The notes under the pieces were generated by a model. It searched no databases. It had not been told where the DNA came from and was given only the letters and a program-made list of their open reading frames with translations. From Bacteroidales bacterium CF (GTDB lineage: Bacteria; Bacteroidota; Bacteroidia; Bacteroidales; UBA932), in contig CP006772.1 in NCBI GenBank assembly GCA_000473305.1, positions 2,237,805-2,301,804 on the forward strand: DNA of 64,000 nt, given 5' to 3'. The translations under genes were made by a program, and so were the position numbers. This document shows positions 8,540 to 64,000 of the stretch, piece by piece. Within the stretch, counting starts at the first letter, position 1. Every line of letters begins with the position of its first letter.

Positions 8540-8718
8540 AGGAGCGGTTAATTTTTGTGCAATCATTTTTAAGGAACCGCAAACAGGCCGGGTGAGTTAT
8601 AGCAGATCTCAATGCTGCGCAAGATCAAATCACCTTTAGCACAAGGTTTTGCCTTATAAAGATATAAACATTTTTTATTTATCAAAAAAACCGTTTTTTA
8701 TTCCGGAATATTGATTTC
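8540..8718. repeat. left end of the cassette array: degenerate attC-A plus the 5' part of a non-coding cassette NC1, truncated by IS21
   Basis: 8575-8700 is homologous to the right end of attC-A and the start of NC1 (..GTTATAGCAGATCTCAATGCTGCGCAAGATCAAATCACCTTTAGCACAAGGTTTTGCCTTATAAAGATA..). The rest of NC1 resumes at 11440-11628 after the IS21. Confidence 0.6.
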
Positions 8719-8880
8719 TGTGATAATATCACACCAAATGTGCCGGTCATATCACTCACAAATGTACCGGGTGTATCAGTCACAAATGAGCCAGGCGTAT
8801 CACCCACAAATGTGCCACAATAAAGGGATGTAATCTTGAAGATCACTCCTGTGTATTTTTGAAAAAAATACACTAAGGAG

Positions 8881-10440
8881 ATGTCAAACAAGAAGATTAC
8901 AATGCTAAAGCTTAAAAGGATTTTACAATTACTGGCAGCTGGAGTCTCTCAACGGGAGATCAGCAACAAGGTTGGAATAAGCAGGTCATCTATAACAGCC
9001 TACAAGGAGAGAGCCGATTCATCGGGCAAGAGTTATCAGGAACTTTTACAAATGAGTGACTCTGATGTGGTCTCAGTGCTTCAGCGCAAGGATTACCGTC
9101 CGGGTAAAGATGCCCGTTATGACAAGCTTGAGCCTCTTCTGAAGGATTATAGCCACGACATCACACAAAATCGCAGTACATATGAGTGCCTTTGGGAGGA
9201 ATACCTGAAATTACATCCGGAGGGCTATGGATACACACGTTTCAAGGCATACATACAAGGCTATATCAAATCCCATCATTATTCATACCACAATGTATAT
9301 GCCCCGGGCTTCGAGATGCAGGTTGATTTTGCCGGAGACAAACTGAATCTGATTGATCGTAAAACTGGATTAATTACAGAGGTAGTCGTTCTGTGCTGTA
9401 TTCTTCCATATAGTTCCATTGCCTTCATAATGGCACTTTACAATGCAACCCAGGAATGTTTTTATTACGGTCTCTCAAAAGCACTGTCATATTTTGGAGG
9501 GATACCGGAATCAGTCAAGAGTGACAACATGCGTCAATGGGTGATACGTTCGGACAGGTACGAGCCGACCTTCAGCGAGTCCACCATGCAATGGAGCGTC
9601 CACTATGACACGGAGCTTGTCGCCACGAGGCCGGTTCATCCGAAGGATAAGGCTCCCGTTGAGGGATTGGTGAACAAGACATATCAGTTCGTTTATTCCC
9701 GTATACGGAATGAGGAGTATGAGACGCTTGATTCGCTTAATGCACGCATATTTGAGCTCACCGGTGAGTTCAACGGGCGTAATATGACGGGGCGCACCTA
9801 CAGCCGGATGGAACTTTTCGAGAAGGAGGAGAAGCCATTACTCAAGCCTCTTCCGGCAGAGCCATTTATGTTAAAACATAGGAAAGAGTTCCTTGTACCG
9901 TCCAGCTATCATGTCCAGATAGGAAAAGAGAGACACTCTTACAGTGTCCCCTATCAGTATGTGAATCAGAAAGCCACCGTAGTATTCGACCAGGAAAGCG
10001 TGGAGGTGTATGTTGGCTTTAACCGGGTGGCCATTCACAGACGGGATCTGAAGGCCAACGGATACACGACAGAGCCATCCCATATGCCCGAAAATCACCG
10101 TGCATATCAAAAGAGCAGAGAGTATAATGCAGCATATTATCTTGGACAGGCACGTCACATAGGGCCAAATACAACAACGGTAATAGAGCGCATCCTTACT
10201 TCACAGCCTTTCATCCAGCAGGCTTACAGATCCAGTCAGGGTATATTGTCCCTGACAAGAAAATACCCTGCCGAGAGGATAGAGGCAGCATGTGGAAGAG
10301 CTTGCGGTACTACGGCAGCTGTAAGTTATACTGCAATAAAAAGAATACTGGAGTTAAAACTTGATACGGAGCAGGTAAACACCTGTTCATCACATATACC
10401 TCTCCATGAAAATCTCAGGGGAGCATCTTCTTTCGAATAG
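8881..10440 (+). CDS. istA: IS21-family transposase IstA
   Basis: 519 aa with an N-terminal HTH and a DDE core, followed by istB. Confidence 0.9.
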   Translation: MSNKKITMLKLKRILQLLAAGVSQREISNKVGISRSSITAYKERADSSGKSYQELLQMSDSDVVSVLQRKDYRPGKDARYDKLEPLLKDYSHDITQNRSTYECLWEEYLKLHPEGYGYTRFKAYIQGYIKSHHYSYHNVYAPGFEMQVDFAGDKLNLIDRKTGLITEVVVLCCILPYSSIAFIMALYNATQECFYYGLSKALSYFGGIPESVKSDNMRQWVIRSDRYEPTFSESTMQWSVHYDTELVATRPVHPKDKAPVEGLVNKTYQFVYSRIRNEEYETLDSLNARIFELTGEFNGRNMTGRTYSRMELFEKEEKPLLKPLPAEPFMLKHRKEFLVPSSYHVQIGKERHSYSVPYQYVNQKATVVFDQESVEVYVGFNRVAIHRRDLKANGYTTEPSHMPENHRAYQKSREYNAAYYLGQARHIGPNTTTVIERILTSQPFIQQAYRSSQGILSLTRKYPAERIEAACGRACGTTAAVSYTAIKRILELKLDTEQVNTCSSHIPLHENLRGASSFE

Positions 10441-10467
10441 CAATCACTCACAAAAATTATAATTAAC

Positions 10468-11202
10468 ATGAACAACCAAGAGACACTAATCCAACTTGAA
10501 TCCCTGAAGATGAAGGGTATGGCACAGGCCTTCTCTGCCATTATGAATCTTGCACCTCACAACAGACCTCCCTTGGAACAAATAATGGCAAAGATGGTTG
10601 AGTCTGAGCTGCTTTCCAGAAATGAACGGAAGACGACAATGTATCTTAAAACAAGCAAATTGAGATACAACAGTGTCCTTGAGGAAGTTATCTGTTCTGA
10701 ACAGCGTAACTTTACCAAAGAGCAGTTACTGGATTTATCTGACTGTAGCTTTGTAAAACGAGCAGAAAACATACTCATAACGGGTAAAACCGGTTGCGGG
10801 AAAAGCTATCTTGCCTGTGCCATCGGGAAGCAGGCTTGCCACATGGGGATACGGACAGAGTACTTCGCAATGAACAAGTTCATTGAAAAGATAGCCATGG
10901 CAAAAATTGAAGGTTCATTCATTAAAGTCATCAATCATATTGAAAAAAACGACCTTATTATCTTTGACGACTTCGGATTGCAACCGCTGGATACCAACTC
11001 CCGTTTGGCTCTTCTGCAGATACTGGAAGACTTTTATGAACGAAAATCAGTTATCATTACATCCCAACTACCCGTAAAAAACTGGTACGACTATATCGGG
11101 GAACCTACTCTGGCCGATGCAATAATGGATCGTGTCACCAGTAACTCTAGAAGAGTTGAGATAAAAGGCGAATCAATGAGAAGAAAAGAGAGAAAAAATT
11201 AA
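10468..11202 (+). CDS. istB: IS21-family helper ATPase IstB
   Basis: 244 aa with Walker A GKTGCGKSYLA. AAA+ DnaC-like. Confidence 0.9.
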   Translation: MNNQETLIQLESLKMKGMAQAFSAIMNLAPHNRPPLEQIMAKMVESELLSRNERKTTMYLKTSKLRYNSVLEEVICSEQRNFTKEQLLDLSDCSFVKRAENILITGKTGCGKSYLACAIGKQACHMGIRTEYFAMNKFIEKIAMAKIEGSFIKVINHIEKNDLIIFDDFGLQPLDTNSRLALLQILEDFYERKSVIITSQLPVKNWYDYIGEPTLADAIMDRVTSNSRRVEIKGESMRRKERKN

Positions 11203-11285
11203 TACTTTTATGTCAAGTTTACAGCTCTTTCTCGGTGGCTCATTTGTGAGTGATACAGTGGCCTATTTGATGTGATATATTCAGA

Positions 11286-11628
11286 TTTCTGCTTTCTTAA
11301 AATCTATGTTCTTAAATTCTTCGGTTAATAAGGAATCGGTGGTCTCCTTGTCGTTCGTAAATGACACTAAACCTTTATCAAAATGCCATGTTCCTAAGTA
11401 ATTAATTGTATTACTCAAGACTTCAAAATTATATCTCACAAGTTTCTCTATTACTAACTCTCCTTACAAGGGTTAAATCAAATCCGGATTGAATAGCAAA
11501 ACCTGTGACAAAGGCCCGGTAATATTATTGAATACAGAAAAGAGACTTCCTCAGTTAAATACACCCTCTCAAGGCAAAAATCAGACAACCAGCACAAACT
11601 TCAGCATTCACAACTATTTTCAAGTTGG
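11286..11628. repeat. 150 bp of unmatched DNA plus the 3' part of the NC1 copy disrupted by IS21 #1
   Basis: 11440-11628 (GGGTTAAATCAAATCCGGATTGAATAGCAAAACCTGTGACAAAGGCCCGGTAATATTATTGAA...CAAGTTGGTTATAACGG) matches the 3' half of NC1. It is the same subvariant as the copy at 61780-61965. Confidence 0.6.
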
Positions 11629-11692
11629 TTATAACGGTTTCGCGGTAAAATTCCGTTTTAATGGAATTTAACGCGTGTTAGCGGGTCGTTGC
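11629..11692 (-). other. attC-like site (short type, about 60 bp)
   Basis: TTATAACGG|TTTCGCGGTAAAATTCCGTTTTAATGGAATTTAACGCGTGTTAGCGG with an internal imperfect palindrome (CGCGGTAAAATTCC / GGAATTTAACGCG). Lies immediately 3' of a minus-strand gene. Confidence 0.6.
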
Positions 11693-11695
11693 TTT

Positions 11696-12553
11696 TTATT
11701 TTAGTTTTTTCATTGTCTGGTTTTCAATTAGTGATCTCATTTGTGTAATGGCAACTTTATTGAGTTGAATAAGTCGTTCTCTTTGAGGTAATCCCTGACG
11801 GATAAGCAGAGCATTTATACTCTCCATATTGCTCAAAACTACTAATTGTTCTATGGTTGCGTAGTCTCTTATGTTTCCGACTTTGTCGAGATTATTGTCC
11901 CTCCACTCTTTGGCGGTAATCCCGAATAGAGCAACATTCAGCAAATCGGCTTCGTTTGCATAAACTAAGCTAACTTGTTGTGTCGTGATTTCTTGCGGTA
12001 TAATGGTTTCTTTAATAGCGTCTGTCTGAATTTGATAATTTATTTTTGCTAATGTGCGTTGTAAATTCCAACCTAACTCAAGACGGTTATTTTCATCGTC
12101 TTTCAGTCGCTGAAACTCATTGACTAGATAAATCTGAAATTCCGGACTTAACCACATGGCAAAGTGAAATGCAATGTCTTTGTGTGCATAAGTACCACCA
12201 TAACGCCCTGCCTTTACAATCATTCCGATTGCTTTGGTTCGTTCAACCCATTGTCCTACAGACATTATAAACCTATTTATGCCTGCTTCATGTCCAATTA
12301 CCCCGAATTCGGTGTAATTAAAAATAGGGTTGTTTACTTTTTCCCACACGCCTAAATACTCCAATGTGTTTTTATTGGTTATCCATTTACCGATTAACCC
12401 ACTACCCTCATTGAATCCGGTTGTCATATCAGTCAGGCTGATATAGTCGGTTTCATTTTGGCTGATAACAGTTATTGACGATTCTTTTACCTGTAATACT
12501 CTTCCTTTTGCCATTGTGTTTTCCTGTTTTTTTGTTTTGGTGTCACTCCGCAA
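11696..12553 (-). CDS. KilA-N domain-containing protein
   Basis: 285-aa single-gene cassette. The N-terminal region resembles KilA-N DNA-binding domains (..ISLTDM..GKWITNKNTLEYLGVWE..). Low certainty on family. Confidence 0.45.
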   Translation of the reverse strand: MRSDTKTKKQENTMAKGRVLQVKESSITVISQNETDYISLTDMTTGFNEGSGLIGKWITNKNTLEYLGVWEKVNNPIFNYTEFGVIGHEAGINRFIMSVGQWVERTKAIGMIVKAGRYGGTYAHKDIAFHFAMWLSPEFQIYLVNEFQRLKDDENNRLELGWNLQRTLAKINYQIQTDAIKETIIPQEITTQQVSLVYANEADLLNVALFGITAKEWRDNNLDKVGNIRDYATIEQLVVLSNMESINALLIRQGLPQRERLIQLNKVAITQMRSLIENQTMKKLK

Positions 12554-12558
12554 TGACC

Positions 12559-12618
12559 GCTAACGATCCCGCGGTAAAATTCCGTTTTAATGGGATTTAA
12601 CGCGTGTTATGGGGCGTT
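12559..12618 (-). other. attC-like site (short type)
   Basis: CGCTAACG|ATCCCGCGGTAAAATTCCGTTTTAATGGGATTTAACGCGTGTTATGG. Same family as the site at 11629. Confidence 0.6.
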
Positions 12619-12620
12619 TA

Positions 12621-12944
12621 TTAATCAACATATGTTTCTTTGATTACATTCTTCACATTATTAGTCTCTTTTTCTGTCAAATAACCCAGACTTTTAATTA
12701 TCCTGATCCTGTCAACAGTCCTGATTTGGTCTAATACAATCCACCCTTTTATTACTTTCTGGGTTATCTCAATCCTTGTCGGATATGGCTTTGAAGAACT
12801 TGTAAGAGGGGCAATTACAATCGTTTGAAGGTACTTGTTCATTTCATTTGGCGAAAGTACTACACACGGTCGAGTCTTCTTCATTTCACAGCCTATTGTA
12901 GGCTCAAGATTTAACAAAACAATCTCATACTGACTTATTTCCAT
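12621..12944 (-). CDS. type II toxin, MazF/PemK family
   Basis: 107 aa (..RPCVVLSPNEMNKYLQTIVIAPLTS..), typical MazF/PemK. Overlaps the upstream antitoxin gene. Confidence 0.8.
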   Translation of the reverse strand: MEISQYEIVLLNLEPTIGCEMKKTRPCVVLSPNEMNKYLQTIVIAPLTSSSKPYPTRIEITQKVIKGWIVLDQIRTVDRIRIIKSLGYLTEKETNNVKNVIKETYVD

Positions 12945-13198
12945 TCCTCAAATGTTTCATCGTTAAAAATGTCATCAATTCCCAACTTATCGTCTCCGGC
13001 CAAGTGCATTTGCTTAAACGATTCTTTCCATCCCTTTCTCGGTGCAGATTTTGGTTTTAAGATAATTCTTCCTTTTTCCAAAATCAATTCAATTGAATTA
13101 GTAATGTTATACTGTTCCAAAATGGATTTAGAAAGTCTAATTCCTTTTGAGTTTCCAATGTTGATAACTGGTATTTCCATAATTTCTAATTTGTACAT
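12935..13198 (-). CDS. antitoxin, MazE/AbrB-SpoVT family
   Basis: 87 aa with an AbrB-type swapped-hairpin N-terminus (IPVINIGNSKGIRLSKSIL). Followed by an acidic tail. Overlaps mazF by 10 nt. Confidence 0.7.
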   Translation of the reverse strand: MYKLEIMEIPVINIGNSKGIRLSKSILEQYNITNSIELILEKGRIILKPKSAPRKGWKESFKQMHLAGDDKLGIDDIFNDETFEEWK

Positions 13199-13258
13199 AC
13201 AAAGTAATTACTTTTTAACGAGAATTACAAATTCGGAATATTTAATCGAAAAAATGCC

Positions 13259-13377
13259 TCATAACGGTTGCGTGTATGAAACGTTTGGCATTTCGAAGCA
13301 CTTTCCTGTCAAGTTACAACTACTTTTGATACGAGCTGTAACACTTGAATAAGCACTGTCTGCCAAATGTTTTATAC
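13259..13377 (-). other. attC-like site (about 120 bp)
   Basis: CATAACGG|TTGCGTGTATGAAACGTTTGGCATTTCG...CTGCCAAATGTTTTATAC. Outer inverted repeats GTGTATGAAACGTTTGGCA / TGCCAAATGTTTTATACAC flank a variable centre. Confidence 0.7.
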
Positions 13378-14679
13378 CCATTGTTGGCGTTTCGTTGTTC
13401 TTTTTATCTCAATAAGCGTATCATCAATTTTCTTTGTTTCCGTAATTATTTTGTCTTTTAGTTCTTCATTAATTGGCAGTTTTTGATAATCAGCAGAATT
13501 TTCAGAATGTATTGGAATAATTCCTGTTTTCGGATTTACAAGATTACAAACATCAGCGAGACATTCCGCAGAAGCGTGTCCGCTTGTATGTATTTTACTT
13601 ACTTTGGAAAACTTATCAATAAAATCCAAATATTTCTTATTTGCATGTTTGCATTGCGGATTTATATATTCTTTCCACATTGAATAAATCAGAATGGTTT
13701 TGTCTTTCTCTAATAATGGCAACAAAAACTCTGTGTAATCATCGAATTTATCAGTTGCACGAACTAACATACAAAAACCTTTATCTTTCATCCAATTTAT
13801 TAGTTTCTCGTTGTCTTTCCGGAAAATATAAGGTTTCTCAAAATCAAATAATGTACTTTTTTTACCCGCAGTATCTGAAAATATTTCTAAAACACTTTCT
13901 TGAAAATCATCACAAACAAAAGGTCTGCCGTTCATTTTTTGATTTGCTGCATGAAAAGTAGCTAATCGTTCCATGTCAGTTGATGAACACAAAACAAATA
14001 CATTTTTATTTTGCTTCATAAGCTCTACAACTTCTCCTTTCAATTCATTTTCGTGTCGAACTCTTTCGTCTAAACGTGCAAGCATTGTTCCTTCAGTAAT
14101 TAGAAAATCAATCTTCCCTTGTTTAAGAATTAGTTTTTCAATAGTTGGAAGAAGACCTTTACCAAGATAACCGTGCTCCCGAAAATCGCCAGTATGCAAA
14201 ATCCTCTTCCCATTTACTTCAATTAAAAACATATAGGCATCGTAAGCCGAATGGCTTACGAAATATGGTATTATTTTAATATCTCCAACTTTAAATATTT
14301 GTTGAGATTCAAAAGATTGCATTGCTTCTATTCTATCAATTTCTTTTTCCGACTGTTCTTTGCGGTCTTTGATGAATGAAAGGCGTTGATGTTTACATAA
14401 AGCTACTCTTTTTGCAACTTTACCAATATATTGAGTAATTGAATTAGGAACAAGATGAAATAGACCTAAATGGTCTCCGTGATAATGTGTGTAAAATATT
14501 GCATCAATATCTTTTGTTATCTTTTCAATTGCATCTGAATTAGCAAAATCATCGTTTACAACACCTTCGCCATTAGGAAGATTTTGCCCCAAATCTATTA
14601 GGATTTTTGCGTTGTTAGTTGCAATTTCAGTTATGCAACCTCCAATTTGGTCTATACCTCGATGGATTGTAATTCTCAT
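13372..14679 (-). CDS. MBL-fold metallo-hydrolase of the beta-CASP (RNase J/CPSF-like) type
   Basis: 435 aa with an HYHGDH metal-binding motif and the downstream beta-CASP motifs (HTGDF, HTSGHAS). Confidence 0.65.
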   Translation of the reverse strand: MRITIHRGIDQIGGCITEIATNNAKILIDLGQNLPNGEGVVNDDFANSDAIEKITKDIDAIFYTHYHGDHLGLFHLVPNSITQYIGKVAKRVALCKHQRLSFIKDRKEQSEKEIDRIEAMQSFESQQIFKVGDIKIIPYFVSHSAYDAYMFLIEVNGKRILHTGDFREHGYLGKGLLPTIEKLILKQGKIDFLITEGTMLARLDERVRHENELKGEVVELMKQNKNVFVLCSSTDMERLATFHAANQKMNGRPFVCDDFQESVLEIFSDTAGKKSTLFDFEKPYIFRKDNEKLINWMKDKGFCMLVRATDKFDDYTEFLLPLLEKDKTILIYSMWKEYINPQCKHANKKYLDFIDKFSKVSKIHTSGHASAECLADVCNLVNPKTGIIPIHSENSADYQKLPINEELKDKIITETKKIDDTLIEIKRTTKRQQWV

Positions 14680-15464
14680 TTTAGCTTGTAATTGTTATCG
14701 CTCACAACTATTAGTTTATGTCGATTTTTGAGTTCATTCGAAAATTCTGCAATTTGCGAATTGGTGTCAGGATGAAAAACAAAAACTAATTCAGGGTTTT
14801 GCTTTTCAAAAGCATCGGAGAAACTGAAATTATCAATGATTCCTAATTTAATTTTGTCTTCGATAATATTCTGAATGTCTTTTACCAGATTCGTTTTAAA
14901 TATTTTTTCGTTTTTTCCAAATAGATATTTTTCAAAATCACAAATATGCTCTTCAATCCCAGATTTCCCTTTTGTAGCACCCATTCCTTTTTTTACTTCA
15001 AAGAATATAATTCTATTTGTTTCTTTGTCTATTCCTAACAAGTCAAAAACACCACGTTTTTCTCTACAATATTTTTCAATTTGATTTTGCTCAAAAGCAT
15101 ATTCCATATCAAGAATGATATACTTATCACTTTTGTCTTGATTGCTTTTTGCGATATTTTGTTGTGAGTCAAATTCCGCTCTTTGTTTTTTGCTTTCAAG
15201 CCAATTATCAATTGTTTTTTTTATCAGTTTGAAATATTCTTTTGGATTAGAAACCGCTAAATCAGTATTTGGGACATTTCCGTACTTTATATCAACTTTT
15301 AATTTCTTAATTTCTAATGCTTTTCCTTTTCGATAATAAACAAAGGCATCGCCATTTTGACGAACTTCCAAACGTAATTCGTTATCTGATTTGATGTAGT
15401 TTAACAAAGGCAATAAATCACCATTTGTCAATCTTTCAATAAGTTTATCATCAATTTTTCGCAT
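14676..15464 (-). CDS. hypothetical protein, possible PD-(D/E)xK nuclease fold
   Basis: 262 aa. ..YIILDMEYAF...IIFFEVKKGMG.. fits a D...E-x-K signature. Overlaps the MBL gene by 4 nt, suggesting an operon. Confidence 0.4.
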   Translation of the reverse strand: MRKIDDKLIERLTNGDLLPLLNYIKSDNELRLEVRQNGDAFVYYRKGKALEIKKLKVDIKYGNVPNTDLAVSNPKEYFKLIKKTIDNWLESKKQRAEFDSQQNIAKSNQDKSDKYIILDMEYAFEQNQIEKYCREKRGVFDLLGIDKETNRIIFFEVKKGMGATKGKSGIEEHICDFEKYLFGKNEKIFKTNLVKDIQNIIEDKIKLGIIDNFSFSDAFEKQNPELVFVFHPDTNSQIAEFSNELKNRHKLIVVSDNNYKLK

Positions 15465-15488
15465 ATCGTCTGTCTTTTTACAATGACG

Positions 15489-15616
15489 CCCAACGGTTGG
15501 TGTATGAAGCGTTGGGCATTTCGGAGCACTTTCCTGTCAAACCGCTACAAAGTTGATTAAAGGTAATTCGCTTAAAACCTGCACTTTCCGCCCAATGATT
15601 TATACACCTTGTTACC
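15489..15616 (-). other. attC-like site (about 128 bp)
   Basis: CCAACGG|TTGGTGTATGAAGCGTTGGGCA...GCCCAATGATTTATACACC TTGTTACC. Outer inverted repeats present. Confidence 0.7.
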
Positions 15617-15785
15617 ACCTGGTGTTTTTGACTTTCTGTCCCCAAAAAACAATAGAAATTTTGAAGCCTTGTGACATTATCACTTTTTTGTATTCTAATT
15701 ATTGTCAATATGTGTGGTTTGAGTATTATTTCTTAATATCAGTAAATTTATTAAATAATTCTCAAAATATGCAGGGGCTTTGTAA

Positions 15786-15843
15786 GCTCTTTGACAAAGC
15801 TTAGGAAATAGCGTTGGCTTGTGCGGCTTTGGCAATGTGCTTA
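15786..15843 (+). repeat. conserved ~60-bp bracket motif, copy M1 (3' side of the efflux cassette)
   Basis: GCTCTTTGACAAAGCTTAGG..GCGTTGGCTTGTGCGGCTTTGGCAATGTGCTTAC. Direct repeat of M2 at 24891. Confidence 0.6.
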
Positions 15844-15891
15844 CAAAATGAGTAGGGTAATGAGGAAATTGTTTTAATGAATCTTAAAGCT

Positions 15892-16275: not shown

Positions 16276-16285
16276 TCTAACACTT

Positions 16286-17179: not shown

Positions 17180-17180
17180 T

Positions 17181-20722: not shown

Positions 20723-20730
20723 AAATCCGC

Positions 20731-55449: not shown

Positions 55450-55461
55450 ATCACTTTTTTA

Positions 55462-56171: not shown

Positions 56172-56173
56172 TT

Positions 56174-56292: not shown

Positions 56293-56328
56293 GATGTTAG
56301 CGGTTCGGCTTTTATTTCTATCATCATT

Positions 56329-57246
56329 TTATTCCTCTCCAAAATAATCACTGTCAAGTTTTTTCAGTTCGTATGTCTGTTGGGTTGTACAACCCAAACT
56401 ATAATCAATCATAAGTTGAGCCAATTGTTCTCCGTCAATTAATACAATTTTGGTTTCGTTTCTTGGTGTGTAATCCAATGCTTCTTTTGTGAAATTTGAA
56501 GTTGTTATAAAAATTCCTTTTTTCGCACCTTGTCCTGCAAGTGCTCCAACAAATTTTTGAATCTCAGGTCTGCCTACTACATTCCCAGTTTTCCAGCGTT
56601 TTGCTTGAATGTAAATTATATCAAGTCCGAGTTTATCTTCTTTAATTGTTCCGTCAATTCCTTCGTCACCACTTTTTCCCATTGCTTTGCCAGCATCTTT
56701 AATAGAACCACCGTATCCCATTTTAACTAACAATTCGACTACAAGTCTTTCAAAAAATGCAGGTGAAAGTTCAATAACTTTGTTTAGTAATTCAGATGCT
56801 AATGATTTTCTGATTCTCTGGTAAGCTTTATCAAGATTCTCCTCTGGTGTCTGTTCGTGAATTTCTATTGTAGCAATTTCTTCTTCTGTTTCGTTTTCAT
56901 TACGCGAAGCATTTTGAAATTCTAAAAATGCAGGGAATTGTCTTAAATATTTCGCATCAATTCGGTCAGGATTTTTTGAAAGTGTCTGTCTGCCAAGGTC
57001 TGTAATTACAAAAGTCGCACGCTTCGGCGAGTCAAGAAGTCCAGCTTTTTTTAAATATGTTTTTGCCCAACCAACTCTGTTGTCAAAAATAGCTTGATTA
57101 CCGCTTGCTAAAAGCTCTTTCCTTTCTTCGTCTGTAACTTCAAACTTAATCGCTAAATTTTCAATTATGTCTCTGTATTTATGCTCTTGTCCGTCCGAAA
57201 CGAGTTTCAGTAATGGAAGCATTAATGTTTGGTAATCTGGTATCAT
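56329..57246 (-). CDS. Mrr-family restriction endonuclease
   Basis: Mrr_N winged helix (MIPDYQTLMLPLLKLVSDG..) plus the Mrr_cat PD-(D/E)xK core (..DIIYIQAKRWKTGNVVGRPEIQKFVGAL..). The listed ORF start at 57351 is probably too long. A start at the MIPDY Met (57246) avoids overlap with the upstream gene. Confidence 0.7.
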   Translation of the reverse strand: MIPDYQTLMLPLLKLVSDGQEHKYRDIIENLAIKFEVTDEERKELLASGNQAIFDNRVGWAKTYLKKAGLLDSPKRATFVITDLGRQTLSKNPDRIDAKYLRQFPAFLEFQNASRNENETEEEIATIEIHEQTPEENLDKAYQRIRKSLASELLNKVIELSPAFFERLVVELLVKMGYGGSIKDAGKAMGKSGDEGIDGTIKEDKLGLDIIYIQAKRWKTGNVVGRPEIQKFVGALAGQGAKKGIFITTSNFTKEALDYTPRNETKIVLIDGEQLAQLMIDYSLGCTTQQTYELKKLDSDYFGEE

Positions 57247-57253
57247 AGTAATC

Positions 57254-57799
57254 TTATATTTCGTTTTTAAGTCGGTATGGAAATTCATTTTTACATTTAT
57301 CCCAAAATTCTTTACCGTCAATTTCTGATAAATGTTTTTTAAAAAAGTCAAGAGTTTCTTGTTCCATGTGTTTTACTGAACTATTAAATACTTCCCAAAA
57401 TTCAATTCTTGGAGTTGATTGTTTCTTTAGCTCGTCTCTTGAATAGTTAAAGGCAGCAAAAATATCGCTTGGATTAAAATTTGTTTGGTCTGTTGATGGA
57501 CTATTTCCAACAAATTTAGGATATAGTGTCAGACTGCGAAATTTATTATAATGAGTTTGAAAATGTGAATAACACACTTGGTCAACAAGTACAGTAAAAT
57601 ATAAAGCTGTCCCAAAAAAAGCTTTTTCGTAAATATCCAAAAAATCCAAATAGTTAAAGTCTTTCGTTAATGCTTGATATTGAATTGTGAAGATGGTTTT
57701 ATCACCAAAAGTATGTTTACTCCTGTCAGGTATTATCGAAAAAAATCGAAGTATATCCTGTCGAAACTTATGATTATAATATGTTGCAAAATCTGTCAT
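57254..57799 (-). CDS. hypothetical protein
   Basis: 181-aa ORF upstream of mrr in the same cassette. Confidence 0.45.
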   Translation of the reverse strand: MTDFATYYNHKFRQDILRFFSIIPDRSKHTFGDKTIFTIQYQALTKDFNYLDFLDIYEKAFFGTALYFTVLVDQVCYSHFQTHYNKFRSLTLYPKFVGNSPSTDQTNFNPSDIFAAFNYSRDELKKQSTPRIEFWEVFNSSVKHMEQETLDFFKKHLSEIDGKEFWDKCKNEFPYRLKNEI

Positions 57800-57823
57800 T
57801 GTTGTCTTTTTTTAAGCTGACCG

Positions 57824-58202
57824 CTAACGGACCGCGGGTATAGTACGGCCACCCTGTCCTCTTGCAAACCCATTGCCTCCGGTGGCTGAACTATACCTGG
57901 TGTTATAACCAGCTTCGATTTCAGCACAAGTTCAAATCGCCTTTGGCTCACGGTTTTGCCTTATAAAGATAGAAACTTTATTTATTTAGTTGAACACAGA
58001 TTATCCTAAATATCAACGAACAAACCCAATATTTACACTAAGGGTTAAATCAGATCCGGAGTGGATTGCAAAACCTGTGACAAAGGCGCGGTAATATTAT
58101 TGAAAATAGAAAAGAGACTTCTAGACTTAAATACACCCTCTTAAAGCAAAAATCAGACAGCCAGCACACACTTCAGCCTTTACAACTTTTCTTTAGTTGG
58201 TT
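57824..58202 (-). repeat. non-coding cassette type 1 (attC-A + NC1)
   Basis: attC-A 57824-57909, NC1 57910-58202. Confidence 0.7.
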
Positions 58203-58578
58203 ATAACGGTTTCGGGTGTAGTTCGGCCACCCTGTCCTCTTGCAAACCCATTGCCTCCGGTGGCTGAACTATACCTGGTGTTATAACCAGCTTCGATTTC
58301 AGTACAAGATCAAATCGCCTTTGGCTCATGGTTTTGCCTTATAAAGATAGAAACTTTATTTATTAAGTTGAACACAGATTGTCCTAAAAATCAACGAACA
58401 AACCCAATATTTACACTAAGGGTTAAATCAGATCCGAATTGAATCGCAAAACCTGTGACAAAGGCGCGGTAATATTATTGAAAATAGAAAAGAGACTCCT
58501 ACACTTAAATACACTCTCTTAAAGCAAAAATCAGATAATCGGCACACACTTCAGCTCTTACAACTTTTCTTTAGTTGG
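58203..58578 (-). repeat. non-coding cassette type 1 (attC-A + NC1), tandem second copy
   Basis: attC-A 58203-58286, NC1 58287-58578. Direct tandem duplication with the preceding cassette. Confidence 0.7.
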
Positions 58579-58828
58579 TTATAACGTTTCGGCGGCTGAG
58601 CCCGTTTTAATGGGCGTAGACGCCTGTTATGGGTCGGTTGCGCTATTGGCTGGTTGTTTTATTTATTTTTCTTTAACTTCTATATCATTAACTCTCTTTA
58701 AAAATACTCATCAACTCGGCTGCCTCTCTTTTTCTGCAAATGACCGGTACTTTTTGCTCTTAGACAGATACTTTATATTCTAATCTTCTCTCTTTTTCTT
58801 CTGCCGTATTGGTTCCCGCAACTGACCC
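58579..58828 (-). repeat. non-coding cassette type 2 (attC-B + NC2)
   Basis: attC-B 58579-58642, NC2 58643-58828. Confidence 0.7.
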
Positions 58829-58950
58829 ATTAACGGTCGGCGGTATGAAACGTTGGGGATTTCGGAGCTGCGAACCTATCAACCGATAAGAACCTTGCCA
58901 GCGAGCGATGCACTTGGCATACCACTTAAACCCCAATGTTTTATGACCGC
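58829..58950 (-). other. attC-like site (about 120 bp)
   Basis: CATTAACGG|TCGGCGGTATGAAACGTTGGGG...CCCCAATGTTTTATGACCGCG TGTTAGGC. Confidence 0.65.
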
Positions 58951-58953
58951 GTG

Positions 58954-60159
58954 TTAGGCAACGTTAATTTTTTCTTTTTTCTTGTCTAAAACTGTAAATA
59001 TTATCATTAGTATAGTAGCAATTAATGCCATTATAGAACCAAAATAAAATGGCGCATTTGAATTAACCTTATCATACAATAATCCTGCAATTAAACTCGC
59101 AGGTAATAAAGTAATTCCAAGTACAGCATGATAAATTCCAAATCCCGTCCCTATTAAGTCTTTACTAACAATATCAGAAATCATTGCTTTCTGGCTACCA
59201 TCAGTCAATGCACTGTAAAATCCATACAGCATAAACAAGAAAATAAAAACATTTATACTATTAAACCTACCGAAAAAATAATAAACAATTGCATATACTA
59301 TAAAACCCAGAATAATCAATTTTTCACGACCAATTCTATCCGATAATTTTCCAATCGGTATGGCCAGCAAAACAGATACTGTATTAAATATCATATATAC
59401 AAAAGGAATGTATGATTTATCTATACCTGTTTCGCTTGTTTTTACAAGCAATAATGCATCTGCTGAATTACCAAGAGTAAACACGAAAATTATAATAAGA
59501 AAGAAATAAAACTTTTTGGGTAAAAGTTTTAATGAAATCTTATTGGTGGTTTCTTTTTTTTCTGCCTTTGCTTCTTTTATGAAAATAATAATCGTTAATA
59601 CACCAAGAATTGCTGGAATGGTTGCTAATAAAAATATGTAAGAATAATTTAATGGAAAAATAGATAACAATAAGAAAGCAATCAAAGGACCAACAATAGC
59701 CCCACTATTATCCATTGCTTTCTGAAACCCAAAAGTTTTACCAGCTTCATTTTTTTTAATAGAGCCACTTATAAGGCTATCTCGTGGTGCCGCTCTTAAA
59801 CCTTTTCCTATGCGTTCAAAAAACCGAAAAAATAAAATCTGAATTGGTATTCTTGCTAATGCATATAAAGGTGTTATAATGGCTGTAATACCATATCCGA
59901 TAATCATGAATGGCTTGTTTTTACCAATCTTATCACTCCAGTACCCCGAAATTGCTTTTAATAATGATGCCGTACTTTCTGCAATCCCTTCAATTAAGGA
60001 GATAGTTGTTTTTGATGCTCCTATCGACAATAGGAATAGTGGCATCACACTATATACCATTTTGGTAGATGTGTCTGTGAAAAAACTTGTTAATCCGGTG
60101 AAAAAAGCATTTTTCTCTAATCCAAATATTTTTTTCTTTTCATTCATTTTATTAGTCAT
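58954..60159 (-). CDS. MFS transporter
   Basis: 401 aa with 12 predicted TM helices. Confidence 0.8.
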   Translation of the reverse strand: MTNKMNEKKKIFGLEKNAFFTGLTSFFTDTSTKMVYSVMPLFLLSIGASKTTISLIEGIAESTASLLKAISGYWSDKIGKNKPFMIIGYGITAIITPLYALARIPIQILFFRFFERIGKGLRAAPRDSLISGSIKKNEAGKTFGFQKAMDNSGAIVGPLIAFLLLSIFPLNYSYIFLLATIPAILGVLTIIIFIKEAKAEKKETTNKISLKLLPKKFYFFLIIIFVFTLGNSADALLLVKTSETGIDKSYIPFVYMIFNTVSVLLAIPIGKLSDRIGREKLIILGFIVYAIVYYFFGRFNSINVFIFLFMLYGFYSALTDGSQKAMISDIVSKDLIGTGFGIYHAVLGITLLPASLIAGLLYDKVNSNAPFYFGSIMALIATILMIIFTVLDKKKEKINVA

Positions 60160-60184
60160 TCCGCAGTGTCTTTTTTAATGTTGC

Positions 60185-60560
60185 CTAACGGACCGCGGGT
60201 ATAGTACGGCCACCCTGTCCTCTTGCAAACCCATTGCCTCCGGTGGCTGAACTATACCTGGTGTTATAACCAGCTGCGATTTCAGTACAAGATCAAATCG
60301 CCTTTGGCTCATGGTTTTGCCTCATAAAGATAAAAACTTTATTTTTTAATTCAATCACAGATTATCCTAAATATCAACGAACAAACCCAATATTTACACT
60401 AAGGGTTAAATCAAATCTGCATTGGATTGCAAAACCTGTGACAAAGGCGCGGTAATATTATTGAAATTAGAAAAGAGACTTCGAAACTTAAATACACCCT
60501 CTTAAAGCAAAAATCAGATAATCGGCACACACTTCAGCTCTTACAACTTTTTCAAGTTGG
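60185..60560 (-). repeat. non-coding cassette type 1 (attC-A + NC1)
   Basis: attC-A 60185-60270, NC1 60271-60560. Confidence 0.7.
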
Positions 60561-60810
60561 TTATAACGTTTCGGCGGCTGAGCCCGTTTTAATGGACGTA
60601 GACGCCTGTTATGGGTCGGTTGCGCTATTAGCTGGTTGTTTTATTTATTTTGCGTTAACTTCTATATCATTAACTCTCTCTAAAAATACTCATCGATCCT
60701 GATGCCTCTCTTTTTCTGCAAATGACCGGTCCTTTTTGCTCTTAGACAGATACTTTATATTCTGATCTTCTCTCTTTTTCTTCTGCCGTATTGGTTCCCA
60801 CAACTGACCC
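60561..60810 (-). repeat. non-coding cassette type 2 (attC-B + NC2)
   Basis: attC-B 60561-60624, NC2 60625-60810. Confidence 0.7.
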
Positions 60811-60940
60811 ATTAACGTTTCGCAGCTTGGCTAAGTGGCGGTTTTGAAGCACTTACTTTCAATTTAGCACTAAACTTCATTTGAAAACCAAATGTTCAAT
60901 TTAGCACAGAACCCGCCATTTTGCCAAACTGCTGTTAGGT
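60811..60940 (-). other. attC-like site (about 130 bp)
   Basis: CATTAACG|TTTCGCAGCTTGGCTAAGTGGCGG...CCGCCATTTTGCCAAACTGCTG TTAGGTGC. Confidence 0.65.
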
Positions 60941-61033
60941 GCAGGTGTATTTTTGTACTTTGTCATTTTTTGATATTTTCATAAAAACAGCAAAACACTC
61001 AACAATTTTTACTGTCTTTATGAAAAATCAATG

Positions 61034-61225
61034 TCATAAACTCGCTAACATTTTTATAATTGGCTTCACAAAATCATTTGTTGGCTTGTCTTCTACTAAT
61101 GCTCTCTTTTTGTGAGCAATTATTGCCTTTTTCAAATTTTGAATTTGAGCATTAATTGATTTTGCTTGCTCTGCAAAAGTCAATTCTTCAAATGTTTTGG
61201 TGTTGTTTTGGTGTGCTTTTGCCAT
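61034..61225 (-). CDS. small hypothetical protein
   Basis: 63-aa helical ORF. Low certainty. Confidence 0.3.
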   Translation of the reverse strand: MAKAHQNNTKTFEELTFAEQAKSINAQIQNLKKAIIAHKKRALVEDKPTNDFVKPIIKMLASL

Positions 61226-61240
61226 AAAATGAATAAATTA

Positions 61241-61438
61241 TTACAATAATGTAGTTAATAAATTACCGTGAGCAACAACACGATAGTTGCTATCTTTAGT
61301 CACATTCTGTTTAGGGTCATAATACCCTTTTACACGGTAGTTTGAATCTTTAATCGTTAAAGTTCCATCACTTTCTTGTTCAATGTAACCCAACACACGA
61401 TAATTCGAATCTTTTAAAGTCTGAATAACTTTTCCCAT
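61241..61438 (-). CDS. small protein with three KDSNYRV(x)GY repeats
   Basis: 65 aa: LKDSNYRVLGY / IKDSNYRVKGY / TKDSNYRVVAHG. Confidence 0.35.
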   Translation of the reverse strand: MGKVIQTLKDSNYRVLGYIEQESDGTLTIKDSNYRVKGYYDPKQNVTKDSNYRVVAHGNLLTTLL

Positions 61439-61580
61439 AATGAATTTAGTTTAAAGTCCGCCTTCTTTGCAGACAAAATTTTTCACCTACTCTTTTCTCG
61501 GTTTTCGGTTTCCCCGTTTTTTTAGAATTCTGATGAAAATTTCTCGCTTCTTGCTTTTGGCTGTCGCTCGGCACTTGCAC

Positions 61581-61958
61581 CTAACGGACCGCGGGTATAG
61601 TACGGCCACCCTGTCCTCTTGCAAACCCATTGCCTCCGGTGGCTGAACTATACCTGGTGTTATAACCAGCTGCGATTTCCGCACAAGATCAAATCGCCTT
61701 TGGCTCATGGTTTTGCCTCATAAAGATAGAAACTTTATTTTTCAATTCAATCACAGATTATCCTTAAAATCAACGCACAAACCCAATATTTACACTTAGG
61801 GTTAAATCAAATCCGGATTGAATAGCAAAACCTGTGACAAAGGCGCGGTAATATTATTGAATACAGAAAAGAGACTTCCTCAGTTAAATACACCCTCTCA
61901 AGGCAAAAATCAGACAACCAGCACAAACTTCAGCATTCACAACTATTTTCAAGTTGGT
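61581..61958 (-). repeat. non-coding cassette type 1 (attC-A + NC1, subvariant shared with 11440-11628)
   Basis: attC-A 61581-61666, NC1 61667-61958. Confidence 0.7.
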
Positions 61959-61960
61959 TA

Positions 61961-62077
61961 TAACGGTTACGTATATGAAACGTTTGGCATTTCGAAGCAC
62001 TTTCCTGTCAAGTTACAACTACTTTTGATACGGGCTGAAACGCTCGATAACCCACTGACTGCCAAATGTTTTATATA
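61961..62077 (-). other. attC-like site (about 117 bp)
   Basis: TTATAACGG|TTACGTATATGAAACGTTTGGCA...TGCCAAATGTTTTATATAC. Confidence 0.7.
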
Positions 62078-62099
62078 CGATGTTATGCGTTTGCCATTT

Positions 62100-63536
62100 T
62101 TATTTTCTATCATATTGTTCGTCAAATTTGTTCATTATTTCAATGTATTCGTTCGGTAGTTTGTCAACTACAAAGTCCATTATTTCTGTTGGAATTTGTT
62201 TGTAAAATGCCGAAGCAATTCCACCTGTTACGCAAGCTATAGTGTCGCTGTCGCCACCGATTGAAATTGCAAGTCTAATGGCATTTTCAAAGTCTGAACT
62301 TTCAAGGAAGGCTACAATTGCTTGTGGAACTGAACCCTGACAAGTTACGTCAAATTTGTAAGTAGGTCGTATTTCGTCAAGTGTAAAGTCAAGATTATAG
62401 TTGAAAGTCCGAGTTATGTAGTCTTTAATTTCTTGTTTTGATTTTCCTTGTCTTGCTAGAAATATTGCAGTTGCTGTTGCCTGTGCTCCTTTAATTCCTT
62501 CGGGATGGTTATGTGTTACTTCTGCTGACTGTTTAGCCACTTCCATAACGGTTTCAATGTCATTAAAGGCAAAACCGACCGCACTTGCTCTCATTGCCGA
62601 ACCATTACCGAAACTTGCGTAAGGTTTTAAATTGTCTTCTTGTAGCCAATTTCTGAAACTACCACCATAACCACGTCCACGATATTTTCTGCCATATTCC
62701 CAAATTGTCTTGGCAAAATTTTTCTTATTCAATATGCAGTCAGCAACGGCAATTGTTAAAACTGTATCGTCAGTAAAATCACACTTTGGATTGAATAAAT
62801 CAAAGTCGGTTGTTTTAATGTTGTTCCATTCAAACACGGAACCAATTACGTCACCGATAACTGCACCAATTATTGTGTTTGATTTATTTTCATTTTTTAA
62901 TATGCTTCTGTATCCTAAAATAACTTCTGATATATTTTTCGCCAACTCTAAATCTTCACCTTCAAAATGATTTCTTAAATCTTCTCCGTCAACAATATAA
63001 TCGTTATCATTTTTTTTGTTTTTAAAACAGTCCAAATTATAGATTGATTTTATGTAGTTTGGTGTTTTAGTCATTACTGCCCAATGTAAAAGACTTACTA
63101 AATCATAATCTGTCAGGTCTTTTGTTTTAAGTTTTAAACAACCACCATAATCACCTAAAAAATAATAATGTTGGTGGTGCGAAACAATTCTGCTGCCTAA
63201 ACACGAATAATGATTGCCAATTCTTGGTGTTTCTGGGAAAAATGTAGGGTGTGAAGATTTGTTGTCTGTCGCTGTGCTTTTGGGTTCACTGTCAGGATTA
63301 AAGTTTCTGAAAACAGCACATTCTTTTTCCAAATTACTCCAAACATAATCTTCAACTTTTTCAATAGGTAATTTGTCCCAAAAATGCATTGGATTGTAAT
63401 AAAAAATCAAATCTTTACCGTCATTTAAAGCAAAAAAGTAATGGGACACATAAATAGCATTTGTGCCTTTTGTCCTACGCAAATCATCTATGAGTAGTCC
63501 ATTTACTTTTGTGTCAAATCCTGAATATTCCTTCAT
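62100..63536 (-). CDS. ADP-ribosylglycohydrolase family protein with a ~200-aa N-terminal extension
   Basis: 478 aa. The C-terminal 280 aa carry the ARH fold signature (IIGAVIGDVIGSVFEW...DDTVLTIAVADCIL...GGDSDTIACVTGGIASAFY). Confidence 0.7.
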   Translation of the reverse strand: MKEYSGFDTKVNGLLIDDLRRTKGTNAIYVSHYFFALNDGKDLIFYYNPMHFWDKLPIEKVEDYVWSNLEKECAVFRNFNPDSEPKSTATDNKSSHPTFFPETPRIGNHYSCLGSRIVSHHQHYYFLGDYGGCLKLKTKDLTDYDLVSLLHWAVMTKTPNYIKSIYNLDCFKNKKNDNDYIVDGEDLRNHFEGEDLELAKNISEVILGYRSILKNENKSNTIIGAVIGDVIGSVFEWNNIKTTDFDLFNPKCDFTDDTVLTIAVADCILNKKNFAKTIWEYGRKYRGRGYGGSFRNWLQEDNLKPYASFGNGSAMRASAVGFAFNDIETVMEVAKQSAEVTHNHPEGIKGAQATATAIFLARQGKSKQEIKDYITRTFNYNLDFTLDEIRPTYKFDVTCQGSVPQAIVAFLESSDFENAIRLAISIGGDSDTIACVTGGIASAFYKQIPTEIMDFVVDKLPNEYIEIMNKFDEQYDRK

Positions 63537-63551
63537 TAGGTCGTCTTTTTA

Positions 63552-63680
63552 TGGTAACGCATAACGGCTGACGCTATAGCAAGTGTGGGATTAAATTGTT
63601 GCTCAACTATCTGCCAGCACAAATGTATATTAAGATTTCAAATGTTTCAACGAACACGCAAACCCACATTTGCTATAGCG
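63552..63680 (-). other. attC-like site (about 129 bp)
   Basis: GCATAACGG|CTGACGCTATAGCAAGTGTGGG...CCCACATTTGCTATAGCG TTTGTTAGCGG. Confidence 0.65.
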
Positions 63681-63697
63681 TTTGTTAGCGGTAGTGC

Positions 63698-64000
63698 TTA
63701 TTTTATCTCAGTAAATGTCCGAATATAAATTTGTGGATTTCTACCAGCTTTTTGTCTATTTGAAGGATGAAATGCAAAGATTATTTTAATATTCTTCTCT
63801 CTTATTTCTCTTAGTGTATTCGAACTAGGTAGTTTACCTTGAAACAAGATTATGTTTGGTTTTAAGATTTCAATTTCTTTTAATAACAATGATTCTTCTA
63901 ATTCTTTTTTTAGGAATTTTCTGTTTTCGTTACCAGATCGATTTACTCTCGATATAGTTACAAATTTATGGAGATTTGTTAATGCTACAAACGACAATGG
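63698..64000 (-). CDS. hypothetical protein, 3' part (cassette gene probably extending beyond the window end)
   Basis: Minus-strand ORF open to the window edge, ending at 63698 next to an attC. Confidence 0.35.
   Translation of the reverse strand, partial: PLSFVALTNLHKFVTISRVNRSGNENRKFLKKELEESLLLKEIEILKPNIILFQGKLPSSNTLREIREKNIKIIFAFHPSNRQKAGRNPQIYIRTFTEIK

Follow-up and report, generated by a model that had tools for sequence, protein, structure and literature searches.

The window analysed here is a 64,000-nucleotide stretch of the chromosome of Bacteroidales bacterium CF (contig CP006772.1, positions 2,237,805 to 2,301,804), with a G+C content of about 38% and with its long open reading frames (ORFs) mostly on the minus strand. 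From 8.5 kb to its right edge it contains a succession of gene cassettes separated by hairpin sites resembling attC. We read this region, which covers no less than 56 kb and 28 cassettes, as the distal part of a chromosomal integron-type array with non-classical sites, whose cognate enzyme would not be a classical integron integrase (IntI) but a tyrosine recombinase of 383-388 amino acids (aa), as judged from nine related loci, and we put the probability of this reading at roughly 70%. The observed array is real and far beyond chance, and it looks like an undescribed branch of the integron family. What carries this reading is the observed structure of the sites, their covariation and strand bias, the crossover point, the mobility of the cassettes and, in other genomes, the link between these sites and one recombinase family. 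The cassette logic is classical. Two features that co-define integrons mechanistically are absent, namely the extrahelical bases from the sites and the IntI insertion from the associated recombinases. The insertion reportedly binds the extrahelical bases, and the two together are said to define classical integrons in mechanistic terms; they are treated as a defining, essential pair, and the detection tools are built on them.

Structure and strand asymmetry of the sites

A first-pass annotation of the window had reported at least 28 attC sites from 8.5 kb onwards, and the count holds: there are 27 intact attC-like hairpin sites and one degenerate site, all in a single orientation (plus strand), spanning 8.5 kb to 63.7 kb on the same strand throughout. 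Twelve of the intact sites are 124-126 nucleotides (nt) long, seven are 80-81 nt and eight are 48-49 nt, so that the measured range is 48-126 nt and not the 60-130 bp given at first. Inspection of each TAACG occurrence, with folding of the candidates, yielded 26 sites, which start with (T/C)AAC and end with GTT(A/G); the 27th (54747-54794, CAAC start) was found by eye. The twelve long sites can be aligned end to end, loop included. A covariance model trained on these twelve only scored them at E 1e-20 to 1e-32 and recovered 14 of the 15 short sites, on which it had not been trained, at E 1e-6 to 0.2, the miss being the site at 54747-54794. Over the 64 kb, the model gave no match in positions 1-8500 and none within cassettes or long multi-gene stretches. 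An energy scan for TAAC...GTTA hairpins gave 8 sites only and was replaced by a stem-counting scan, in which a threshold of 10 pairs returned noise (83 and 64 matches versus 35-52 in shuffled sequences) and matches of at least 16 pairs were real. Rfam, which holds no attC family, contained no family matching the hairpin sites or the ORF-less cassettes described below.

The conserved flanks described in the first-pass annotation were found again as (T/C)AAC|G(G)TT on the left and GTT(A/G) on the right. The AAC and GTT boxes are kept in 27 of 27 sites, and the purine and pyrimidine positions of the RYYYAAC/GTTRRRY consensus are loosely kept. The palindrome quoted there as an example is also real, being present in the sites starting at 13262, 56175 and 61961. 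The statement that every element has a different palindrome did not stand, since one 80-nt site type occurs seven times and one 48-nt type six times, because whole cassettes are repeated.

In the consensus fold, a short R box (..TAAC/GTTA..) is followed by a 3-nt bulge (GGT/GTT) on the 5′ arm only, an unbroken stem of 19-20 bp and a variable loop of 8-85 nt. Compensatory changes were found in 16 of the 24 predicted pairs from the window sites alone. Covariation was tested on a set of 63 further sites (57 distinct) from other contigs. Among the 57 distinct sites, 94.3% of the cells were paired, compared with 66.9% in shuffles, and 17 of the 18 stem pairs showed changes on both sides. The covariation score was 0.668, whereas shuffles gave 0.155 (0 of 500 reached the observed score) and slid partners 0.06-0.11.

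The two strands are not equivalent. On the folded strand, G·T is fixed at three positions of the stem (57/57, 55/56 and 48/57 of the sites); in alignment A4 these are columns 15/187, 29/175 and 37/169, for example in the window site 41947-42070. On the opposite strand they become A·C mismatches, and accordingly the plus strand pairs more stem positions than the minus strand (16-22 versus 11-18). In all four sites that were folded, the plus strand was the more stable one (-25.2 versus -23.6, -20.1 versus -17.1, -18.3 versus -12.4 and -12.0 versus -7.4 kcal/mol). The fixed G·T positions may be the strand-choice signal.

The extrahelical G/T bases that the first-pass annotation expected on the folded strand are lacking: folding revealed no bulged base in the 19-20 bp stem of any long site. 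As a comparator we used the aadA1 attC, the sequence of which was confirmed at 100% identity in R100 and in thousands of other plasmids. Folded in the same way, its bottom strand had an R box of 7 bp and a spacer that is roughly symmetric, and its 3′ arm carried two single-base bulges. In the window sites, the sole length asymmetry is the internal loop beside the R box, with a 5′ arm of 3-6 nt (GGT/GTT...) versus a 3′ arm of 0-3 nt. The difference between the arms is 3 in most sites, whereas the aadA1 spacer is roughly symmetric at 5-6 nt. When the model derived from the window was run on the R100 integron region, the best match was the bottom strand of the aadA1 attC (12.2 bits, E 0.05). In geometry, the window sites and the aadA1 attC are thus still related.

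Cassettes, crossover and polarity

Two units are repeated along the array, one of 378 bp present eight times and one of 249 bp present six times. Intact copies are 84-100% identical, and one diverged copy and one copy disrupted by an insertion sequence (IS) have 62-68% identity. In every copy the hairpin lies at the low-coordinate end, and the DNA on its left is different each time, as far as the base that precedes AAC. As the left neighbour varies and the hairpin is constant, the site moves together with the DNA to its right, which puts the join at TAA|C.

The boxes give the same result. When the 8 nt after the GTT of a site were compared with the 8 nt before the next AAC, the mean complementarity was 5.5 of 8, versus 2.2 of 8 within the own hairpin and 2.8 of 8 for random pairs; the low values mostly reflect a one-base register shift in the 249-bp cassette. 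Such complementarity across the cassette is the signature of a classical integron cassette, in which the last bases of R′ stand at the cassette start. Taken together, the repeated cassettes and the box complementarity place the crossover at TAA|C (G|TTA on the gene strand) and the start of the array beyond the right edge. The minus strand is thus the "top" strand, the genes precede their own site, and the array starts past the right edge, as the first-pass annotation had deduced from gene polarity. The assembly contig L001, which overlaps the right edge, carries the next 48-nt site just past base 64000.

The complementarity also holds for three large units, 15494-25056 (9.6 kb), 25057-32919 (7.9 kb) and 46406-54749 (8.3 kb). 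For example, the far end GGTGGTAAC of the unit 15494-25056 is complementary to GTTACCACC of its own site. Since the boxes match at the far ends, each of the three is a single cassette carrying a whole operon. In all, five cassettes (2.2-9.6 kb) are without an internal site although they contain two to nine genes, which contradicts the earlier statement that every intergenic boundary carries a site. As had been stated, the cassette genes are minus-strand genes followed on their 3′ side by the site. The claim that all cassette ORFs are co-oriented is correct for these genes; the array is, however, interrupted by four IS elements, three of them plus-strand insertions.

The 378-bp and 249-bp cassettes, which make up about half of all cassettes, are ORF-less: they contain short, poorly conserved ORFs only, and no match to a Bacteroidetes-type promoter consensus was found in either. 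The 378-bp unit was also seen in SABC01000146.1, a contig of a Bacteroidia metagenome-assembled genome (MAG).

Recombinases, attI and competing explanations

To what enzyme such sites belong can be seen in nine related Bacteroidia loci, one obtained by walking along contig Ga0268263_1000268 and eight fetched. That 106-kb metagenome contig holds the locus L018, which has five sites, and was walked via one of its proteins. The array reached there has seven sites and starts directly after the gene of a 386-aa tyrosine recombinase, which is co-oriented with the cassette genes. Homologues of 383-388 aa (50-100% identity) occur in Prolixibacter, Sunxiuqinia, Mariniphaga and Prolixibacteraceae MAGs, complete genomes included, and were seen in Prolixibacter denitrificans, two Sunxiuqinia species and four further assemblies. 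The catalytic R-K-H-R-H-Y set is invariant in these recombinases, which have an extra conserved N-terminal beta/alpha domain of about 80 residues. The best profiles of the 386-aa enzyme are of the XerA and IntI types, both below their cut-offs (194 versus 220, and 186 versus 265 for TIGR02249). At the position of the IntI insertion it has a 43-residue gap relative to the IntI1 of R100, and 22 residues where VchIntIA has 65.

The eight fetched loci have housekeeping or unrelated genes before the recombinase gene in all cases, and accessory and defence genes after it, which share its orientation in seven loci and lie on the opposite strand in the eighth, L098. The window-derived model found sites downstream of the recombinase in 7 of the 9 loci, with 23 hits in the matching orientation (21 at E ≤ 1e-4) and, beyond these, one weak opposite-strand match that overlaps a true site. 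No credible site was found upstream of any integrase, where the flank covered 10 kb in seven loci and only 0.7 kb in L092. About 95 nt past the stop codon, a conserved junction AG|TT, preceded by two ACACATA-like repeats, was present in six of seven loci. Right after G|TT, L092, L096, L097 and L099 carry an exact complement to the inner box in the site of the first cassette, and the chain of complementary boxes continues along the arrays, including those of L092 and L099. Judged from these sequences, the junction after the recombinase would be attI in function. A canonical IntI was sought in about 100 fetched loci with an IntI1 query, the insertion region of which had been confirmed against R100; the search returned insertion-less recombinases only, with no higher-scoring IntI-like ORF. 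The first-pass annotation had predicted that an IntI carrying the additional domain would be found to the right of the window, no more than about 50 kb away. This prediction is doubtful, because the integrase of the related arrays is insertion-less, falls below the TIGR02249 cut-off and is co-oriented rather than divergent; in our analysis it is probably wrong in kind, and a recombinase gene is still expected there.

In the mechanism that we propose, each cassette would read on the minus strand and end in a hairpin recombination site, for which the plus strand of the window would fold. Cutting and joining would take place at TAA|C on the folded strand, equivalent to G|TTA on the gene strand, as at the attC R′ box, and new cassettes would enter at an attI beyond the right edge. 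Recombination would proceed through folded single-stranded DNA and would be catalysed by the 383-388 aa recombinase, with the 3-nt bulge and the G·T wobbles replacing the extrahelical bases as marks of strand and orientation. The gene of the cognate recombinase is predicted to lie to the right of the window, on the minus strand, immediately upstream of the array and co-oriented with it, and attI would be found about 95 nt past its stop codon with two ACACATA-like repeats and the crossover AG|TT. It is reasonable to suppose that the bulge and the fixed wobbles provide the choice of strand and orientation, and that attI is recognised with the help of the N-terminal domain or of the ACACATA repeats.

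The window was said to contain no integrase. This is correct as far as an array integrase is concerned; there is, however, one tyrosine recombinase gene in it (36547-37449, plus strand), which encodes a 300-aa protein and belongs to an IS91-type element. The protein scores 156 bits with TIGR02249 (cut-off 265), is about 42 residues short relative to VchIntIA and is 31% identical to the 386-aa recombinase. It is followed by a Y2/HUH transposase in two parts, at about 37446-37880 and at 40526-41188, with the Pfam domains Zn_Tnp_IS91 and Y2_Tnp and with NCBIfam transpos_IS91 scores of 143 and 165 bits (cut-off 125). An IS66-family element with three genes (38013-40392, minus strand) is nested in the transposase gene, so the copy in the window is dead. 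Close homologues of this recombinase are extremely abundant on contigs of 2-4 kb, where they are always followed by a Y2 transposase.

The left end of the element is GAACTAAATCC plus a small covarying hairpin and stands right after the "...TGTT" of a hairpin of the window family; the right end is ...GTCCTATTTA, followed by TTAG.... Such targeting was observed in the window, in L005-L009, in L010 and in more than 30 of 80 metagenome loci with enough upstream sequence, and the target hairpins all differ. From the placement of the ends, the element inserts at G|TT of the gene-proximal box, always in one orientation. In the window it parts a SUKH-1 gene (41487-41894) from its site at 36323-36448. 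A second class of targets is formed by the 3′ ends of group II introns sitting in such sites, and these introns lie on the strand opposite to the cassettes, like group IIC-attC introns. Insertion sequences of the IS1111-attC group and group IIC-attC introns are known to target attC sites. The IS91-type element and the group II introns resemble them in inserting at a fixed point of the hairpin and in a fixed orientation, whereas the pairing of a Y2/HUH transposase with a tyrosine recombinase sets the IS91-type element apart from the known attC-targeting elements. We found no report of an IS91-type element targeting attC sites in the open-access literature.

Compared with sedentary chromosomal integrons such as the Vibrio cholerae superintegron with its VCR-type attC sites, the array is similarly large and co-oriented, with a homogeneous site family. 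It also shares with them the G|TT crossover, the chimeric R′ boxes, a degenerate last site and the presence of toxin-antitoxin, defence-type and ORF-less cassettes. Unlike in sedentary integrons, the sites have no extrahelical bases but fixed G·T wobbles and, next to the cleaved box, a bulge of 3 nt, three cassettes are operons of 7.9-9.6 kb with their own regulators, and the integrase of the related arrays, which is co-oriented with the cassettes, lacks the IntI insertion and has an additional N-terminal domain. The integron architecture proposed in the first-pass annotation is borne out by the crossover, the chimeric boxes and the co-orientation, and not by the extrahelical bases or by an IntI-type enzyme in the related arrays. 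Integrons with an inverted integrase gene are reportedly found in Treponema, Chlorobi and other groups. As in the Bacteroidia arrays, integrase and cassettes point in the same direction there and attI is downstream of the integrase gene, but the enzymes of that group are IntI with the additional domain, where the Bacteroidia enzyme has the 43-residue gap. A cluster of attC sites without an integron integrase is called CALIN in the definition of IntegronFinder. The window resembles a CALIN in having many sites and no integron integrase inside it; unlike what this operational label describes, the array runs past the edge towards its expected start. For an "integron-like" subgroup of the simple tyrosine recombinases, Smyshlyaev et al. 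(2021; PMC8138268) noted incomplete conservation of the insertion, and gave no function or cassette array for the insertion-less members. The present recombinases are like that subgroup in scoring best on XerA/IntI-type profiles.

Several points weigh against our reading. No array-type integrase or attI lies within the window, so that the enzyme of this array is assigned by analogy. Two of the nine integrase loci, L094 and L098, have no clear site within 10 kb. IntegronFinder may still call the sites canonical, and another recombinase, either a canonical IntI encoded elsewhere or the IS-borne one, could act in trans. Reviews name Bacteroidota among the integron-bearing phyla, without detail, and the absence of any description of the present system in the literature holds for open-access text.

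If the array were a classical integron, a divergent canonical IntI with the additional domain would lie past the right edge and the sites would be ordinary attC with extrahelical bases that we failed to recognise. The AAC and GTT boxes, the G|TT crossover, the chimeric R′ boxes and the co-oriented cassettes are all classical, the window model weakly matches the aadA1 attC, and the mention of Bacteroidota in reviews fits as well. We nevertheless consider this unlikely. The long-site stems have no bulged base, whereas the aadA1 attC folded alike has both; the gene at the array start in the nine related loci is insertion-less and co-oriented, with no better IntI-like ORF in about 100 loci; and the IntegronFinder 2.0 survey of more than 20,000 complete genomes found In0 elements in Bacteroidetes and only one complete integron (Salinibacter ruber). 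We judge it similarly improbable that the array is a relic, equivalent to a CALIN, with no cognate integrase left in the genome and its cassettes frozen. The four IS insertions, the degenerate terminal site and the 64 kb free of an array integrase would suggest decay, but the 84-100% identity among intact copies of the 378-bp and 249-bp units argues for recent recombination, boxes and stems are intact in all 27 sites, and the array continues past the edge.

That the cassettes are moved by the IS91-borne 300-aa recombinase, a mobile rather than a resident integrase, seems less likely still. The precise landing of the element at the hairpin G|TT in more than 30 independent sites means that one of its two enzymes recognises the hairpins, and its recombinase is insertion-less, related to the array integrase and divergent from the cassettes like classical intI. 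The box used by the element is, however, the gene-proximal one, opposite to the crossover box of the cassettes. The recombinase always comes with a Y2/HUH transposase and the element has the end hairpin typical of IS91, so that the targeting may be the work of the transposase; moreover, the arrays of L093, L096, L097, L099 and L102 have a resident integrase and no IS91-type copy in the fetched stretch. As the resident integrase of the array, the 36547-37449 recombinase was rejected on the grounds of its constant pairing with the IS91 transposase, its occurrence on short repeated contigs and its use of the other box. Finally, hairpins 3′ of genes could be generic intergenic repeats (REP- or MITE-like) or transcription terminators instead of recombination sites. 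The probability of this is very small: the hairpins have no T-runs, none is found in the 8.5-kb flank and none credible in the scanned stretch upstream of the integrases (10 kb in seven loci), units of cassette length recur with their site between different neighbours with base-precise ends and cross-cassette box complementarity, and a recombinase gene with a fixed junction behind it marks the start of the arrays.

Beyond the distal-array reading, we propose, at odds only a little better than even, a broader claim. Prolixibacteraceae and related Bacteroidia would carry a distinct integron lineage in which the 3-nt bulge and the fixed G·T wobbles, instead of extrahelical bases, signal strand and orientation, and in which the integrase has no IntI insertion and has gained an N-terminal DNA-binding domain. 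Its arrays could exceed 56 kb and carry operons of 8-10 kb as single cassettes, and would be invisible or mislabelled under the current definition by an IntI C-terminal profile and an attC model and have a parasite of their own, the IS91-type element with a related recombinase. If this is true, recombination of single-strand hairpins can be read in another way, without either partner of the classical pair, and the lineage offers a natural experiment on how strand choice is encoded. The host range of integrons would be widened to a major environmental and host-associated phylum that is nearly empty in surveys of complete genomes. Operon-sized cassettes of 8-10 kb are also relevant to the amount of DNA that an integron can move in a single unit, and an IS91-type element homing to hairpins would be a new, tool-like example of structure-specific targeting.

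Layout of the array and further observations

The genes of the left flank, up to 8513, are also on the minus strand and carry no sites; an IS3-family element with HTH_Tnp_1 and rve ORFs lies there at 5148-6250. The array ends with the degenerate terminal site that the first-pass annotation had noticed, at about 8519-8600 (plus strand). Its right half aligns with the 80-nt type, the left half and the AAC box are lost, and the model gives no match. It belongs to the last, most distal cassette (8519-11634, minus strand), which by its repeat family is one of the 378-bp ORF-less cassettes, here interrupted by an IS21-family element (istA 8881-10440 and istB 10468-11202, plus strand; Pfam IstB and Mu-transposase C). 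In what follows, sites are on the plus strand and the cassettes with genes on the minus strand. A 49-nt site (11632-11680, model E 9e-4) belongs to the cassette of a KilA-N domain protein (11635-12563), and a second one (12561-12609, model match) that of a MazF/PemK toxin with an 87-aa putative antitoxin upstream (12564-13264). The 125-nt site 13262-13386 (model E 4e-32) belongs to a two-gene cassette (13265-15493) for a metallo-beta-lactamase-fold/RMMBL hydrolase and a 262-aa protein.

Next come two of the large cassettes. The nine-gene, 9.6-kb cassette 15494-25056, with a 124-nt site with CAAC start (15491-15614, model match), encodes a TetR regulator, an AcrB-type RND pump, a membrane fusion protein, an outer-membrane factor, a DUF2141 protein, a cupin and a second TetR. 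The seven-gene, 7.9-kb cassette 25057-32919, with a 124-nt site (25054-25177, model match), encodes mostly unknown proteins, including an SPFH/zinc-ribbon protein. The third large cassette (46406-54749; six genes, 8.3 kb), with a 125-nt site (46403-46527, model match), encodes a response regulator, a histidine kinase, a beta-propeller protein, a barrel of the TonB-dependent type, a 3-keto-disaccharide hydrolase-like protein and an outer-membrane factor. A near-palindromic repeat of about 53 nt (..CTTTGGCAAAGC..GGCTTTGGCAATGTG..) was observed at 15787-15839, 24896-24948, 25322-25369, 46700-46752 and 54501-54553, that is, at both ends of two of these 8-10 kb cassettes and at the attC-proximal end only of the third. 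Within these cassettes it precedes the first gene or sits between the site and the last gene, and in the related array L094 (about 11400-11470) a copy precedes the first gene of the first cassette. The repeat may have a regulatory or terminator role, or may be left over from operons becoming cassettes.

Between the second and third large cassettes, an 80-nt-type site (32917-32996) starts a 378-bp ORF-less cassette (32920-33297), and a 48-nt-type site (33295-33342) belongs to a 249-bp-type cassette (33298-36076) disrupted by a second IS21-family element (istA 33582-35135, istB 35148-35870). IS21-family elements are thus found twice in small ORF-less cassettes of the window (8700-11450 and 33400-35985), and in L011, a related MAG contig, another one (about 400-2930) lies inside the loop of an 80-nt site. 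A further 48-nt-type site (36074-36121) belongs to an intact 249-bp ORF-less cassette (36077-36325). The SUKH-1 cassette has a 126-nt site (36323-36448), which is split from its own gene by the IS91-family element (36446-41486, plus strand) inserted at G|TT of the gene-proximal box; the gene part, SUKH-1 (SMI1/KNR4), occupies 41487-41949, and the stop codon of the gene is the TAA of the inner box. The 124-nt site 41947-42070 (model match, folded) belongs to a three-gene cassette (41950-45778) that encodes a protein with an ExoX-like C-terminal domain, a 611-aa unknown protein and a GajB-like UvrD helicase, and that is probably a defence module. PADLOC, run on ten unknown cassette proteins, recognised only the GajB-like helicase. 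An 80-nt-type site (45776-45855; 378-bp cassette 45779-46156) and a 48-nt-type site (46154-46201; 249-bp cassette 46157-46405) complete this interval.

Further to the right, the 48-nt-type site with CAAC start at 54747-54794 has a 248-bp cassette (54750-54997), and the 125-nt site 54995-55119 has a cassette (54998-55799) for a 114-aa membrane protein and a 71-aa zinc-ribbon protein. After an 80-nt-type site with CAAC start (55797-55876; 378-bp cassette 55800-56177), a 125-nt site (56175-56299) has a cassette (56178-57827) for an Mrr restriction endonuclease and a 181-aa protein. There follow an 81-nt variant (57825-57905; 379-bp cassette 57828-58206), an 80-nt-type site (58204-58283; 378-bp cassette 58207-58584) and a 48-nt-type site (58582-58629; 249-bp cassette 58585-58833). 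The 126-nt site 58831-58956, whose sequence is also the target of the IS91-type element in L037, belongs to the cassette of an MFS transporter (58834-60188). Another 81-nt variant (60186-60266; 378-bp cassette 60189-60566) and another 48-nt-type site (60564-60611; 249-bp cassette 60567-60815) are followed by the 125-nt site 60813-60937, the cassette of which (60816-61584) has two small ORFs. The last three sites of the window are an 81-nt variant (61582-61662; 379-bp cassette 61585-61963), a 125-nt site (61961-62085) with the cassette of an ADP-ribosylglycohydrolase (61964-63564), and a 126-nt site (63562-63687), the cassette of which runs off the window and encodes a 231-aa UDG-superfamily-like protein.

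In the related locus L098 (Mariniphaga anaerophila FQUM01000002.1), the stretch 11095-14540 carries toxin-antitoxin-type genes on the opposite strand, and a weak site-like match on the plus strand stands right after the recombinase gene; the stretch may be an inverted array segment. Group II introns, identified by Rfam D1-D4 and domain V matches and by proteins with RVT_1 and GIIM domains, were seen in or next to hairpin sites in L023, L044, L060, L065 and L084, and also in L093 (about 16.2-18.15 kb), L096 (14.7-16.6 and 17.9-19.7 kb) and L101 (13.0-14.9 kb). In L093 the GTGTG 5′ end of the intron comes directly after the stem on the folded strand. The 5′ end of the window cassette 60816-61584 contains the Rfam DUF805b RNA motif (61484-61518, minus strand; 42 bits, above the gathering score), which lies upstream of the two ORFs of 63-65 aa and is a cis-regulatory RNA travelling in a cassette.

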